The notes: generated from the sequence alone by a model not told the origin. 64,000 bases of DNA from an uncultured Clostridium sp. (GCA_945919455.1 CAMEJH010000002.1:4492-68491), one strand, 5' to 3'; shown: positions 19,258 to 39,587, counted from the first letter of the stretch. Program-made: numbers and translations.

Positions 19258-19290
19258 TTCTTTTCCACAATTATATCACTATCTGTTACT
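19258..19290 (-). promoter_or_regulatory. copy 3 of conserved extended -10 motif AGTGATATAATTGTGGAAA
   Basis: Exact 19-mer at 19262-19280, ~37 nt upstream of the start at 19233. Confidence 0.5.
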
Positions 19291-19472
19291 AATTTAAATA
19301 TATATTTCGTTAAAATTTGTCTAATCACGCCTGTTCTCGCTCTAGATTTGACCAAAGTGTGATAATTTTGCCTAAAAGTGCAAGAAATAAGCTCTTGCTA
19401 GAATCTGGCAATTTATTAATATTTCTACCGTTATAATGGTAAGTTTTAAACTTACGACCTTTGGGTTATGAG
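19285..19472. repeat. imperfect direct repeat of the tRNA-fMet 3' half plus ~150 bp of downstream flank (att-like left boundary of a ~20-kb island); includes a 35-nt tRNA 3' fragment at 19438-19472
   Basis: GGTAAGTTTTAAACTTACGACCTTTGGGTTATGAG parallels tRNA 39522-39556. The adjoining GACCAAAGTGTGA(T/C)AATTTTGCC...TGCAAGAAA... aligns with 39435-39500 at ~75% identity. Confidence 0.55.
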
Positions 19473-19640
19473 AATTTGATTGTGATTTTTGAGAAATTTT
19501 GTTAACTTGAGTTTTTATTAGTTTTAATAGGGTTAGAGCAAATTGGTAAGATTATGAAATCGGTTAAAATATGTACTTTTTTGCAATGATTGTCCCCAAT
19601 TTGTCCCCAAAAATTTTTAATAAAAATGGAGGTTTTAACA

Positions 19641-19943
19641 ATGAAAATTTGTGATATTTTAAATAATAATGAAAGTGAAAATTTATTAAAGGAATGGTTA
19701 GAATTTAGAGAGGAGGAATTATCTCGTATGGATGAAAATGATCAAAAGCATTTAATTAATTTTGATGATTATTCTGAAAAGATTTTAAATAATGTTTCTA
19801 GTGAGAATTACAACTATGTTTCTAAAAAATTAGATTTAATCTATGAGGATTTTATGGAGTATTGTGCTTATTGGAATGATAAGTATTATATGAGTGGATT
19901 TAGTGATGCTATTAAGTTGATTGTTAGTGGGTTGAAATTATAA
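19641..19943 (+). CDS. hypothetical acidic protein (about 100 aa)
   Basis: ATG at 19641 with GGAGG RBS. The longer ORF from 19590 lacks an RBS. Confidence 0.4.
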   Translation: MKICDILNNNESENLLKEWLEFREEELSRMDENDQKHLINFDDYSEKILNNVSSENYNYVSKKLDLIYEDFMEYCAYWNDKYYMSGFSDAIKLIVSGLKL

Positions 19944-20027
19944 TTTAGTATAATAAAAAATGTGAACTTTGACTTTCTTAATCAAATGTCATTTTTCACA
20001 CTTTTATTATAATATTGTATTTAATAA

Positions 20028-20417
20028 TTATCTTCCACCATTAATTAAGACTTTTAAATTATTCCATGTCCAATTGTATATTTTATCCGATGTTTTAGCA
20101 GCTTTTGGTTTTTTACAGATTTCGTTTGCTCTTCCATTTAAAAGAAAATATGGAATCCCCTCTTCTTGTGCTATTGATATTTCTGCAGAAACCCCTGTTG
20201 CCTCATCTGTATATTTACCACATATTACAGCTACAACATCACAGCCTTTTATTCTAGTTCTAGCTTTAGCTTTCCAATCATTGTCAATTGTTTCTTTTAT
20301 CGACATATCAGTTATCTCGAAAGGAGAATCTTCATTTCTCGCTTGTCCTACTAATAATGTTTTTAAATCAGAGTCATTGTCATAATCAAAGCTTATAAAT
20401 GTTCTTTTTTTAGACAT
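20028..20417 (-). CDS. TIR-like (DUF1863/MTH538-type) domain protein
   Basis: KRTFISFDYDNDSD opening typical of DUF1863 TIR-like proteins. 129 aa. Begins 18 nt after the caspase-like gene. Confidence 0.5.
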   Translation of the reverse strand: MSKKRTFISFDYDNDSDLKTLLVGQARNEDSPFEITDMSIKETIDNDWKAKARTRIKGCDVVAVICGKYTDEATGVSAEISIAQEEGIPYFLLNGRANEICKKPKAAKTSDKIYNWTWNNLKVLINGGR

Positions 20418-20435
20418 ATTATATCACCTCCATTT

Positions 20436-36712: not shown

Positions 36713-36836
36713 GTCTTTATATTTTCGGTATGTAATTTTTATTTATATTTCCATACTTTTAAGTATTATCTACCAATTATCACATAAAAAAAATAGTAAC
36801 TACTTATTTAGTAATTACTATTTACCTTTCTTATTT

Positions 36837-38591
36837 TTATTTATTATCATCTAATTTTACTAATGGCTTATAACTTTGTAATGCTTCAATTCTTATATCT
36901 TGTATTTTATTTATCCCTTTTAAACTGTTTACATACTTTTGTAATTCATCCTTATATTTTTTATCCATATATTTATAAAAAATATTCCAAATATAGTGTA
37001 TCCACTTCCATTCTTTTTCGGTAATTTCCCCACTTATGTCACTAATAAAATAATTATTCCTTCTAGCTTTTGTAATAAATCTTTCAAATTGAATTTCTTT
37101 ATTTGATTGTATAAAAGCATTATCTATCCATCTTAACTTTTGTACATCAAATTCTTTCTCTTGAAACGATTTTTCAATCATCTCAATCTTTTCAATATAA
37201 TATTTCTCTTCTGCGTCTTTATTATAGTCGTTCACATATGTTCTTAGTTTTTCACAATTTTCATATTTCAATTCAAATCTATCAATTGTATTTTCATATA
37301 AATCTTTCTCTTCTTTATAATAGTTTTCAAATAGAACTGATTTAAATGATTTTTTTAGCTTTGATTCATCATACTTTACATCAAGTGCATTACACCAGTC
37401 TAATATATTATAAATATCATCTATAAATTCATCTAAACAAGTATATGTATATTGGTTCTCTATAATTAAATTATATTTGTCATTAACTATTTTTTTTATT
37501 TTCTCTTCATTTAAATAAAATATATTCTTTTCATCCTTAGAATTTATATATTGTTCTATAACTTGATTCATCTCATCAATTAAGTTTTTGGTATGATTTC
37601 CTTCAAATATTGCTAAAACATAATGGACTAATACTGCTTCTTTATTTATAATAAGAGAGGAATGAAAGTAATGTCTCTCTATTCTTGCCTCAATGTCTTC
37701 GTCTAGTCTTCTAGAAAAAGTATCATAATAATCAGAATTTTTCTCTTCCTTTCCTTTTTTAGGTTCAAATAAATTCTCTGTTTTTTCAATAGCGACTGCC
37801 ATACATGACTTTAATATAACTAGATTTATATTAGGATATTCTTTATATATGTACATATTTAATATTTCTAAAAATAAATTTACCCCTTTATTTATAGTTC
37901 TTAAATTATCTATTGGAAAATTTTCTATAAAATTTTCAACAAAATCATTTAATTCCTTTTCATCTATATATTGGTTTAATTTTGATATTACTATTGAATT
38001 AATTGCTTCTTTTGAAAATTTTGATATCTTATATTCCTTTTCAATTATTTTTTCTTTAAAAGAATTCCAAACTTCTTTATCCTCTTCATTTATCCTACTT
38101 TCATCACCAATCAACACAATTTTTATTTGCTTGCACAATGATAATTGTTCTATTATTCCTAATATATCTTCAATTGCAATTTTGCTACTTTTTCTTTCTA
38201 AGTCGTCTATAACTATTACTAGATTTTCTTCCTCTTTTAAAATTGAATAATACTCTTCAATAACTGATTTTGATTTTATTTCTGGTGAATTAATGCTAAT
38301 TCCGTTATAAGATATTGATCCACTAATTTTCTTTGCTAATTCCTTTCCTTTTTTCCAAAATTTCAGTTTTGAATTAGCTTTTTTAAATAATTCTTTTGCA
38401 ATTTCTTCTTGAATTACTTCAATATTATCCTTACCAAACAAGCTAATATATATTGCATTGTTTTTACTTTCTATATATTGATTTGTATAAAAACTTTTTC
38501 CTATTCCCCATCTTCCATTTATTAATATTTTTTTATATGTATTATCTTTTTCAAAATTTTTTAAAATTTCAAGTATGCTTTTTGATTCCAT
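36837..38591 (-). CDS. KAP-family P-loop NTPase
   Basis: INGRWGIGKSFY (GxWGxGKS of KAP NTPases). 584 aa. Confidence 0.65.
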   Translation of the reverse strand: MESKSILEILKNFEKDNTYKKILINGRWGIGKSFYTNQYIESKNNAIYISLFGKDNIEVIQEEIAKELFKKANSKLKFWKKGKELAKKISGSISYNGISINSPEIKSKSVIEEYYSILKEEENLVIVIDDLERKSSKIAIEDILGIIEQLSLCKQIKIVLIGDESRINEEDKEVWNSFKEKIIEKEYKISKFSKEAINSIVISKLNQYIDEKELNDFVENFIENFPIDNLRTINKGVNLFLEILNMYIYKEYPNINLVILKSCMAVAIEKTENLFEPKKGKEEKNSDYYDTFSRRLDEDIEARIERHYFHSSLIINKEAVLVHYVLAIFEGNHTKNLIDEMNQVIEQYINSKDEKNIFYLNEEKIKKIVNDKYNLIIENQYTYTCLDEFIDDIYNILDWCNALDVKYDESKLKKSFKSVLFENYYKEEKDLYENTIDRFELKYENCEKLRTYVNDYNKDAEEKYYIEKIEMIEKSFQEKEFDVQKLRWIDNAFIQSNKEIQFERFITKARRNNYFISDISGEITEKEWKWIHYIWNIFYKYMDKKYKDELQKYVNSLKGINKIQDIRIEALQSYKPLVKLDDNK

Positions 38592-38624
38592 TTTTTAACT
38601 TACCTGCTTCCTTTATTTATATTT

Positions 38625-39332
38625 TCATCTACTACTTTGATAATTTTTTACTTTTTTTATATATTCTTTTTTAAATAAGAAATCATTAATGTCTTGTAAA
38701 TATAATTTTAGTATCTTTTCAATTTGTTCTTGATTCTTCTTTATTTTATTAACATACTTCTTTTTCAGCTCTTTTATTTCATCTTTGAATGCTATATTAT
38801 ACTTCTCTGTATCTCTAAATTTTGATATAACCTCATAACTTTCTACATTATCTATGTCTTTGGTGGTATATCTTTTTACGTGTACATGTGCTCCTCTTAT
38901 TTCTATTATTCTTTTAAATCTATCAATTGCATTGTTTGTAGAGTTATCTATTACAGTAAAATCAGCATTAAAATCGTTTTCTTCTTTGTACTCCTTTAGA
39001 CTTCTTTTTATTGTCTTTGTTAGTTTTGATATTCTAGATTTCAAAATATATATCTCATTCAAATATGCACTATATATAAATTTCAAATAGTCTACTTTTG
39101 TCACTCTAGGATAAAAAGGAAACGAATTTCTATATATTAAGCAGTTCTTTATACTCTCATATGTCGCATTTAAATCAGTATATTCTTCAAATATCTTTAA
39201 TCTTGCCTTTTCATTATCGGTTAATTTGTCCATATTGAATTTATTTCTTTCAATACTCTCTATAACTTTTGAAATATTTTCAGTAATATTATAAATTAAT
39301 ATTTGAATATCATCTTCCATATATTGCTCCAC
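38625..39332 (-). CDS. hypothetical protein upstream of the KAP NTPase
   Basis: 235-aa ORF, no recognisable motif. Confidence 0.4.
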   Translation of the reverse strand: MEQYMEDDIQILIYNITENISKVIESIERNKFNMDKLTDNEKARLKIFEEYTDLNATYESIKNCLIYRNSFPFYPRVTKVDYLKFIYSAYLNEIYILKSRISKLTKTIKRSLKEYKEENDFNADFTVIDNSTNNAIDRFKRIIEIRGAHVHVKRYTTKDIDNVESYEVISKFRDTEKYNIAFKDEIKELKKKYVNKIKKNQEQIEKILKLYLQDINDFLFKKEYIKKVKNYQSSR

Positions 39333-39371
39333 TTCTTTTTTATTTTTTCCCCAATTATACCACTTCCTGTA

Positions 39372-39556
39372 AATTATTTAAATACATTTCCTGTTAAAAC
39401 TTGTCTAGCTGTGCTAAACCTCGCCCTAACTGTGACCAAAGTGTGACAATTTTGCCCAAAAATGCAAGAAAAAAGCACCTGCTAAAATCCAGCAAATGCT
39501 TCATTTTATTGTGGTTGCGGGGGTAAGACTCGAACTTACGACCTTCGGGTTATGAG
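39372..39556. repeat. right copy of the ~190-bp imperfect direct repeat (tRNA-fMet 3' half + downstream flank)
   Basis: Aligns with 19285-19472. The tRNA-fMet gene is intact in this copy. Confidence 0.55.
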
Positions 39557-39587
39557 CCCGACGAGCTGCCAACTGCTCCACCCCGCG
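39513..39587 (-). tRNA. initiator tRNA-Met (fMet, anticodon CAT)
   Basis: Reverse-complement reads CGCGGGGTGGAGCAG...GGGCTCATAACCCGAAGGTCGTAAGTTCGAGTCTTACCCCCGCAACCA. It has the hallmark C1 mismatch and 5' CGCGGGG of bacterial initiator tRNA, and a CAT anticodon. Confidence 0.85.

Follow-up and report, generated by a model that had tools for sequence, protein, structure and literature searches.

The DNA analysed here, hereafter the window, is a stretch of 64,000 nucleotides from an uncultured Clostridium sp. (GCA_945919455.1, CAMEJH010000002.1:4492-68491). It contains an intact gene for an initiator tRNA-Met and, about 20 kb away, a displaced partial copy of that gene. The segment between the two, referred to as the island, holds about 21 genes, mostly of the defence type according to Pfam and PADLOC (Table 1). 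The C1:A72 mismatch and three G:C pairs in the anticodon stem (GGG:CCC) were read directly in the tRNA sequence. Both features are marks of bacterial initiator tRNAs, and on these textbook marks we take the gene at 39512-39587 to encode the initiator tRNA. It is followed by a terminator hairpin of 13-14 bp and a T run (39502->39472). The GC content is 23-30% across the whole window, and the island is not set apart by base composition.

The two ends of the island are connected by an ungapped match of 212 nt with 73.6% identity (19261-19472 and 39345-39556; blastn E 1.3e-32), the copies being spaced 20,084 bp from start to start. The local alignment score of 151 lies far above that of random sequence (18.7 +/- 2.6, maximum 35, in 500 shuffles). 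The direct repeat at tRNA-fMet described in the initial annotation is therefore real, with a tRNA recognized by ARAGORN and Rfam and a partial copy displaced by about 20 kb; the identity given there (about 75%) holds, and the repeat is slightly longer than the proposed 190 bp. Read along the minus strand, the two copies become alike precisely from the first base of the anticodon loop (CTCATAA) onwards, and 23 of the first 24 nt match. These 24-nt cores, at 39533-39556 and 19449-19472, flank the island as putative attachment (att) cores.

The left copy is decayed in the T-loop, the acceptor part and the terminator, the hairpin of which folds with -7.9 kcal/mol, compared with -15.7 kcal/mol for the intact one in the right copy. 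It keeps a tandem motif, TCACA..GTCAAA (19362->19347), and a promoter module at 19261-19279. A strongly conserved stretch of the flank, GGCAAAATTRTCACACTTTGGTCA, is kept in both copies, with 0 occurrences expected by chance. Rfam detects only the tRNA in the two copies, indicating that the conserved flank is not a known RNA family. In the right flank, which is 86-98% identical in the related loci L057-L068, L076, L107-L114 and L127-L131, an extended -10 promoter (TTTAAA-17-TG-TATAAT, 39382->39354) drives into the first island gene. The 19-nt promoter module GTGATATAATTGTGGAAAA, which comprises the extended -10 promoter and the start of the 5' untranslated region, occurs four times on the minus strand of the window, versus 0.11 expected (3789-3807, 17703-17721, 19261-19279 and 39345-39363). 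Every copy lies upstream of an accessory gene, and two of the four are not close to an att core.

The genes of the island identify it as a defence island: ThsB/TIR with caspase, PDC-S01, E1-E2-like/Bub, CapP/CapH-like, type III methyltransferase with a Res-like partner, UvrD-Cas4-like, PDC-S49 and PDC-S16. Pfam and PADLOC thereby bear out the gene list and the defensive cargo of the initial annotation. Its statement that the window has no integrase also stood. A Pfam scan of the ~60 largest open reading frames (ORFs) of the window (at least ~70-110 aa) returned no integrase, recombinase, transposase, excisionase or relaxase domain (no Phage_integrase, Recombinase, HTH_17, Relaxase or MobC), and tblastn of integrases and element proteins from related loci against the window gave no integrase better than E about 1 and no remnant. 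An ORF beside a tRNA-Lys gene (52444-53688), suspected to be an integrase, turned out to encode a PGA_cap protein. Neither an integrative and mobilizable element (IME) nor an integrative and conjugative element (ICE), as defined by its own integrase together with a relaxase or oriT (IME) or a type IV secretion system (ICE), is represented by the island. Among phage hallmarks, PHROGs gave only phosphoesterase and weak helix-turn-helix (HTH) matches, and the island does not qualify as a prophage or satellite. A phage or satellite origin was rejected, as the viral contigs searched contained 0 matches to the flank motif and to an integrase fragment of the L059 type.

Table 1. Features of the island, its ends and the adjoining unit (positions in the window).
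Feature	Position	Strand	Remarks
Older unit left of the repeat	14038-19233	minus	129-aa protein without assigned function, PRiA4_ORF3, ASCH, two NUDIX, D12 methyltransferase, DUF6996/6997/7226 protein
Left repeat	19261-19472	minus	displaced decayed tRNA 3' part 19427-19472, core 19449-19472, diverged flank
Distal (P) arm, 168 bp	19473-19640	plus	non-coding; tandem TCCCCAATTTGTCCCCAA at 19593-19610
100-aa all-helical protein	19641-19943	plus	unnamed family; conserved terminal island gene
Short ThsB_TIR	20028-20417	minus	second TIR
Caspase-like protease	20436-21404	minus	Peptidase_C14
TIR_2/ThsB	21515-22084	minus	
AAA_14/DUF4143 ATPase	within 20028-25243	minus	PDC-S01, E 1.7e-153
123-aa protein; metallophosphoesterase-like protein (252 aa); XRE HTH	within 20028-25243	minus	123-aa protein without assigned function
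DUF6527/BubE	25293-25631	minus	ubiquitin-like operon; name BubE from precomputed Pfam annotation
DUF6791-ThiF E1	25621-26781	minus	ubiquitin-like operon
Multi_ubiq	26756-27019	minus	ubiquitin-like operon
DUF2188	27091-27321	minus	PDC-S16
XRE/ImmA regulator pair	28174-28512, 27462-28199	minus	CapH/CapP-like
ResIII helicase with TnsA-like nuclease domain	28622-31282	minus	Pfam, PADLOC
Type III-like methyltransferase	31275-32975	minus	Pfam, PADLOC
UvrD helicase fused to PD-(D/E)XK/Cas4-like nuclease	32987-35869	minus	Pfam, PADLOC
Small HTH-like ORF	35920-36168	minus	
Conserved tRNA-proximal block	36277-39344		231-aa protein, KAP NTPase, DUF6809; 98.2% in L127/L128/L131, 92.4% in L107-L114
DUF6809 gene	36347-36619	plus	opposite to neighbours
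KAP-type P-loop NTPase	36837-38591	minus	PADLOC PDC-S49
231-aa protein	38625-39320	minus	no assigned function
Right repeat flank	39345-39511	minus	read as tRNA-proximal (P') arm; terminator, GTCACA tandem, extended -10 promoter
Intact initiator tRNA-Met(CAT)	39512-39587	minus	ARAGORN; Rfam tRNA 63.8 bits; integration target, regenerated at attL
attL core CTCATAACCCGAAGGTCGTAAGTT	39533-39556	minus	anticodon loop, 3' anticodon stem, variable region; 23/24 match to left copy
tRNA promoter	39631->39603	minus	TTGACA-17-TATAAT, perfect

Metagenome contigs (loci L057-L131) were fetched for comparison. In the 12 human-gut loci that a first scan with the conserved flank motif yielded, three intact tRNAs, one aberrant 81-nt tRNA call (L060) and eight partial copies were found. 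All eight partial copies stop at the same nucleotide as the left copy of the window, and the DNA beyond is unrelated. Among L057-L131 this boundary nucleotide recurs in about 20-25 distinct contexts, and the sequence that follows it is unrelated from one context to the next. L059, L076 and L077 continue past the junction into the end of an element of roughly 10 kb that codes for a tyrosine integrase (Pfam E 3.6e-13), and L129 continues into an element with a 456-aa integrase. At least four integrase lineages, 23-43% identical to each other, use the tRNA-fMet site. An attP centred on the anticodon is a standard class for tyrosine integrases, accounting for 2083 of 3919 islands in the Islander collection (PMC4383910).

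Contigs of the same species were reached via 90%-identity relatives of the PBP5 gene beside the tRNA. Six of them (L080, L081, L084, L115, L117 and L118) are 96-99% identical to the window over the covered parts of 39506-52070, and the homology ends at the 3' end of the intact tRNA in all three that were aligned. The first gene after the tRNA, convergent with it, is in each of the six a tyrosine integrase, 396-399 aa long where fully covered. The longer contigs continue with cargo, DUF6076, HTH_17, Phage_rep_org_N, an IstB/DnaA-like ATPase and a relaxase. In another conspecific contig, L082, the sequence breaks off six bases away from the boundary at the anticodon loop. The DNA behind the tRNA is thus strain-specific, implying that the right flank in the window is part of the island and not of the fixed chromosome.

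Close relatives of the tRNA-proximal end were found in another species (L127, L128, L130 and L131), which has the same gene order and core DNA just 65-70% identical. The synteny common to the window and L127/L128/L131 comprises the ABC, DUF5711, CvpA, LytR, PBP5, ComEA and tRNA genes. From 39591 to 36277 (tRNA, flank, 231-aa protein, KAP NTPase and DUF6809; 3.3 kb), the window is 98.2% identical to the other-species loci. Beyond this block the L127-type loci carry other cargo, a MamI-type restriction-modification (RM) system and Hachiman HamA/HamB, and after it a 391-aa tyrosine integrase (Phage_int_SAM_3/Phage_integrase; 40% identity to the 399-aa type), followed by DUF6076, a pair of HTH_17 proteins and a primase of the DnaG type. 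The sister cargo and the 391-aa integrase are separated by a bidirectional terminator alone, without an att core. In L107-L114 the 92% version of the block heads a displaced island and is followed by a type I RM system. The presence of the block together with an integrase in the sister loci implies that the right "flank" is the tRNA-proximal arm of an integrase-bearing element family. By its predicted gene content, the window island is without the integrase, excisionase (Xis) and primase module that the sister elements carry. The search for a cognate integrase suggested by the initial annotation was hence positive in sister elements of other genomes and in other elements at this tRNA in conspecific strains, and negative in the window. 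Internal segments are shared as well: 22111-24859 has a counterpart with 97.5% identity and other neighbours in L089, 24083-24845 one with 86% identity in L107, and the DUF6809 segment is 90-93% identical beside different genes.

The distal end of the island is formed by a terminal module of ~0.5 kb that consists of a 15-nt core, CTCATAACCCGAAGG, the 168-bp arm and the 100-aa ORF. L087-L096 match the segment from 19458 to about 19953-20034 with 93-99.9% identity, and L087-L106 match the arm with 90-100%. Altogether, the distal end recurs at 90-100% identity in about 30 loci whose cargo and neighbours differ. The exact sequence of the 100-aa protein is present on dozens of contigs, homologues with 45% identity occupy the same position in L062 and L067, and the family comprises about 180 clusters at 50% identity. 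The AlphaFold2 model of the protein is all-helical (predicted local distance difference test score 87) and has no fold match in the PDB; the sequence gave no match in Pfam, PHROGs, PADLOC or the PDB. At least six kinds of cargo are found next to the module: TIR-caspase; DUF1451-ThsB; AAA_21 sets; an S8 peptidase with AAA; a cyclic-oligonucleotide-based antiphage signalling system (CBASS; SAVED, E1, DncV-like); and methyltransferase/HATPase. Beyond its core lie at least eight different sequences, including tRNA 3' halves of different alleles, non-tRNA DNA and the left copy of the window. For a 95% variant of the 100-aa ORF, seven of ten contexts consist of a decayed tRNA half, then the arm and the 395-399-aa integrase of the mobilizable element found behind the tRNA in the conspecific contigs. 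Two loci, L088 and L096, are 99.86% identical to the island over 10.5 kb and about 5 kb, respectively, with adjoining DNA that differs from the window; L087 has the window's own arrangement. Judged by these identities, the island is recently mobile in the population and not old, as DNA that is 98-99.9% identical in foreign contexts is not that of an old and immobile island.

Two other genes were considered as homologues of the 100-aa ORF and rejected. The plus-strand ORF 6708-7064 encodes an XRE HTH protein, and DUF6809 is marginal at best (blastp E 0.058, hhalign probability 4.9%, weak Pfam match in 2 of 40 family members). Between 36085-36130 and the distal arm at 19484-19530, a weak similarity was noted (31 nt, 84%, E 0.03); the former site falls within the small HTH-like ORF and is located upstream of the DUF6809 start by about 220-260 bp. 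Like the 100-aa ORF, DUF6809 is a small gene in reverse orientation at the edge of the cargo, and any relationship between the two would be hypothetical.

Both arms of the island contain tandem motifs. The motif TCCCCAA-N4-TCCCCAA was found in 1.44 Mb of fetched DNA only on the distal arm of the island and on the tRNA-proximal arm of the elements with the 399-aa integrase. Its orientation is the same on both, and it is located at +130 from the core on the island, including the divergent version in L067, and 147-149 bp from the core on the elements. We consider it a putative set of arm-type binding sites for the 399-aa integrase family. The L076 element (roughly 10 kb, both arms visible) has its own tandem, CGTCAA...CCGTCAA, on both arms. 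Separate tandems are also present in L109 and L062, equally far from the core, and all of these motifs are putative arm-type sites. The tRNA-proximal arm of the island carries GTCACA-CTTTG-GTCACA (39446->39431), 110 bp from the core, and just one TCCCCAATT.

The two copies of the long repeat differ in their relationship to the flanks of other loci. Foreign flank copies are 86-98% identical to the right copy and 73-78% identical to the left copy, the exception being L087, the near-identical locus of the left copy. This difference implies that the repeats are the homologous arms of two different, successively integrated elements, and does not bear out the view of the initial annotation that they form one diverged att pair; the shared att core is only about 15-24 nt. 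The left copy marks where the 20-kb island has its attR and where an older unit begins. It is most likely, from the comparison of flanks, the arm of that older, more divergent unit, the two being joined by tandem accretion. Pfam finds no integrase in the older unit at 14038-19233, and no further copy of the core, GGGTTATGAG, that would end this unit is present in the window.

From these data we consider it probable that the locus is a non-autonomous integrative island at tRNA-fMet, in tandem with an older unit. A unit of slightly less than 20.1 kb, from 19473 to the core at 39556, would have been inserted in the initiator tRNA-Met gene via tyrosine-integrase recombination with a crossover in the anticodon loop. 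With the island would have come a new 3' half of the tRNA together with a terminator and a promoter directed outwards, now the right repeat, and the previous tRNA 3' half and what followed it would have been displaced by 20 kb as the left repeat. Complete members of the family would consist of the tRNA-proximal block, variable defence cargo, the 391-aa tyrosine integrase, DUF6076, Xis-like HTH_17 proteins and a primase. The window copy would have retained, besides the arm and the block, about 16 kb of defence cargo and lost the integrase/Xis/primase module, and would close with the 0.5-kb terminal module, which would make it comparable to the cis-mobilizable elements (CIMEs) discussed below. 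The left repeat would be the arm of the older divergent unit, which extends from the 129-aa, PRiA4, ASCH and NUDIX genes onwards, so that the locus as a whole would represent tandem accretion. Movement is now anticipated to depend on an integrase from a co-resident element at the same tRNA, and cargo may be exchanged by recombination between the conserved end modules. This explanation starts from the junction geometry and its recurrence, from island ends that are near-identical in foreign contexts and in another species, and from the integrases present in sister and neighbour elements and missing from the window, all of which were observed. The initial annotation had proposed integration at the tRNA 3' end of an island that was either old and immobilized or mobilized in trans. 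Site-specific integration in tRNA-fMet agrees with our results and its placement at the 3' end does not, the crossover being in the anticodon loop; an old age is contradicted by the identities of 99.86% in L088 and L096 and of 98.2% in the other species, and mobilization in trans is still the best reading of the island's movement.

Several observations weigh against this explanation. The island is presumed to derive from an internal deletion, and the integrase-bearing relatives have been seen without their distal ends; a search for the distal end of the 399-aa-integrase elements via MobC homologues found no core within about 16 kb. No same-species contig with an empty site or with joined island ends was found among the fetched contigs, and the nearest relative among GTDB species genomes searched with ComEA, at only 44% aa identity, is too distant for an empty-site comparison. 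Several junctions (L107, L061/064) stop at the core without a recognizable element arm, indicating that deletions or other rearrangements also stop there. The arms of the island carry different tandems, GTCACA versus TCCCCAA, and look like arms of different specificities, as would fit a deletion across a tandem array of two elements. The island may then be a chimera of two elements and perhaps the substrate of no single integrase. The mosaic of modules with 86-99.9% identity in differing combinations implies a strong contribution of homologous recombination. Finally, the left copy may be ancestral chromosomal flank and not an older element arm.

According to the last of these possibilities, the left repeat would be the ancestral tRNA-fMet 3' half with its flank, and the genes to its left (129 aa, PRiA4, ASCH, NUDIX and ArsC) would be native. 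We regard this as doubtful. The flank followed by NUDIX, ASCH, PRiA4 and ArsC does occur beside tRNA-fMet in several lineages (L063, L065 and L092), and the genes are tightly packed in a single operon downstream of the flank promoter, lacking an att remnant at its distal end. In L065 and L063 the PRiA4, ASCH, NUDIX and ArsC genes follow an intact tRNA and flank. The core genes of L065 have 36-48% aa identity to the window, yet its flank is 95% identical in DNA and PRiA4/ASCH 85% identical in aa, which indicates that the left-side genes are themselves mobile; the ComEA of L063 has 51% aa identity to the window. Furthermore, the conspecific strains do not keep a left-type flank after the tRNA, and partial flank copies further left, at 17695-17756 and 3780-3808, suggest serial accretion.

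Homologous recombination between anchors (the tRNA and flank on one side and the 100-aa-ORF module, DUF6809 or the promoter modules on the other) could be the main route by which the island was acquired and its cargo exchanged, with the att-like junction as an inherited scar. The mosaic seen with L089, L107 and the DUF6809 segment and the four promoter modules of the window speak for such a process. It accounts for the turnover of cargo, but not for a distal module that is joined at one nucleotide to at least eight unrelated sequences, tRNA halves of different alleles included, and as the main route it is unlikely. It is very unlikely that a single ancient island is fixed at the site and that a once identical att pair decayed in place, the 74% identity being a measure of age. 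The decay of the left tRNA fragment and terminator is clear and the window does lack an integrase, but island DNA is 98-99.9% identical in other genomes and contexts, displaced tRNA halves elsewhere decay much faster than their flanks, and the similarity of foreign copies to the right copy (86-98%) and to the left (about 75%) reflects divergence between two arm lineages and not the time since duplication. It can hardly be credited that the tRNA-fMet locus was duplicated locally long ago and that defence genes gathered between the copies without any site-specific integration: a long repeat with 165 bp of non-tRNA flank and a promoter is unusual for an att site, but the left copy has no 5' half, being truncated precisely at the anticodon loop, this truncation point is found again in more than 20 contexts, several of them beside tyrosine integrases, and conspecific strains have entirely different DNA after the tRNA.

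Additional features were observed in the comparison loci. The displaced tRNA 3' halves (L057, L058, L061, L066, L097-L106, L107-L114 and window 19427-19472) keep their length and fall to 59-78% identity and a GC content of 26-43%, versus 54% for the intact gene, while the adjacent flank holds 82-92% identity; the decay of the unused GC-rich fragment is fast and AT-biased. In L107/L110 an ASCH gene (8643-9044) runs into the att core (9038) and takes its stop codon from the TAA of CTCATAA, with no element arm upstream. The roughly 10-kb L059-type elements (L071 128-368, L074 717-957 and L076 448-689) leave the tRNA 5' half joined to non-tRNA DNA, so that the target is unrepaired, and bring their own complete tRNA-fMet gene about 196 bp further on. 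In L070-L079 the integrase always consists of two ORFs of 162-168 aa and 178-199 aa (e.g., L070 9427-9933 and 10001-10600), representing a conserved frameshift or a widespread pseudogene. The mobilizable element in its L120 and L121 copies (3465-4988) has other genes in place of the integrase, implying that integrase loss is recurrent in this system. In L119 (15356-17314), with equivalents in L121-L126, a 304-aa RVT_1 reverse transcriptase with small flanking ORFs follows a 680-bp AT-rich non-coding gap and may be a retron-like or DRT-like module inside or beside the mobilizable element.

Further to the left in the window, 3180-13668 constitutes a second variable region and a possible unnamed defence cluster. 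ArsC abuts Metallophos_2 in L091, and about 10.5 kb lies between them in the window, with genes for DUF6339, 302-aa, 637-aa and 847-aa (sigma70_r4) proteins, an XRE regulator, a Spo0A-like regulator and HATPase/NUDIX. The 687-aa ORF at 3206-5269 probably comprises two genes, as a promoter module lies inside it, and 3231-3748 and 16668-17182 are paralogous NUDIX gene segments with 76-79% identity. The plus-strand ORF 810-1727, with no Pfam match, includes seven tandem 36-bp units (920-1243), seen as overlapping 108-nt registers with 64-87% identity; located beside a sortase gene (1771-2592), it may encode a repeat-bearing sortase-anchored surface protein.

The organization of the locus can be compared with known systems. 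CIMEs keep att sites and have lost the genes for integration and transfer, are often found in tandem with ICEs or IMEs at one site, and are proposed to originate from the decay of such elements; both CIMEs and the tandem accretion of ICEs and IMEs are known in Firmicutes, e.g., in the ICESt1/ICESt3-related islands of Streptococcus thermophilus (PMC5704250, PMC10201445). The window island similarly has attL and attR without genes for integration/excision or conjugation/mobilization and stands in tandem with other elements at one tRNA, where integrase-bearing relatives use the same site. It differs in that an anticodon loop, that of the initiator tRNA of uncultured gut Clostridia, is targeted, in cargo that is almost purely defence, and in an end module whose sequence, including a 100-aa ORF, is 90-100% conserved in many contexts. 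Such conservation suggests a maintained element and not merely a decayed one. The island would therefore be CIME-like, with cis-mobilization as a candidate mechanism only, for which the tandem motif shared between arms and the location beside integrase elements are circumstantial evidence. Tentatively, it might belong to an evolved, integrase-less family of defence cargo carriers in gut Clostridia, which would hitch-hike on the integrases and transfer functions of mobilizable elements at the same site by means of the maintained 0.5-kb module, with its core, its arm of integrase-binding repeats and its 100-aa protein of a new family, and swap defence systems beside it.

The regenerated tRNA with a displaced 3' fragment in direct orientation, the anticodon-centred attP and the tandem arrays are also typical of the tDNA islands catalogued by Islander (PMC4383910). 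The definition of these islands needs an integrase inside, whereas the window island has none and its repeat runs about 165 bp past the tRNA. The make-up of IMEs (tyrosine integrase, HTH_17 excisionase, Rep/primase and MobC/relaxase) is matched by the sister and neighbour elements L080, L097-L106, L115 and L119-L128, unlike the window island, which is without any of these modules. P4-like satellites, phage-inducible chromosomal islands (PICIs) and ICE hotspots are hotspots of defence genes in mobile elements. For Haemophilus phage HP1, the homology between attP and attB extends over about 180 bp and covers tRNA genes and flank; it is near-perfect and results from one integration. Att homology running well past the tRNA 3' end is shared with HP1, but the long repeat of the window is 74% identical and best read as the arms of two different elements. 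Pipolins (PMC11551731) resemble the island in that conserved backbone ends bracket fast-changing defence systems; the island has another backbone, no PolB, no phage-satellite genes and another host clade. The adjacent TIR and caspase-like protease match type IV Thoeris (TIR with a caspase-like effector; bioRxiv 10.1101/2024.10.24.620036) at the domain level.

The principle of tRNA islands, tandem accretion and CIMEs is already established. Specific to this locus are the host clade with the anticodon loop of the initiator tRNA as target, and the highly conserved end modules around fast-changing defence cargo. As a clear and well-delimited case, the locus illustrates the packaging and movement of defence systems in uncultured human-gut Clostridia, with a cargo that ranges from TIR-caspase Thoeris-like and ubiquitin-like Bub-type systems, type III RM, UvrD-nuclease and KAP NTPase in the window to CBASS, Hachiman and other RM systems in sister copies. 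At least four integrase lineages, as well as passengers without an integrase, share a single essential gene, that of the initiator tRNA, as their landing site. The end modules (15-nt core CTCATAACCCGAAGG, 168-bp arm, 100-aa ORF and GTCACA-repeat flank) provide sequence handles for mining the defence cargo of gut metagenomes and for probing mobilization in trans or in cis.

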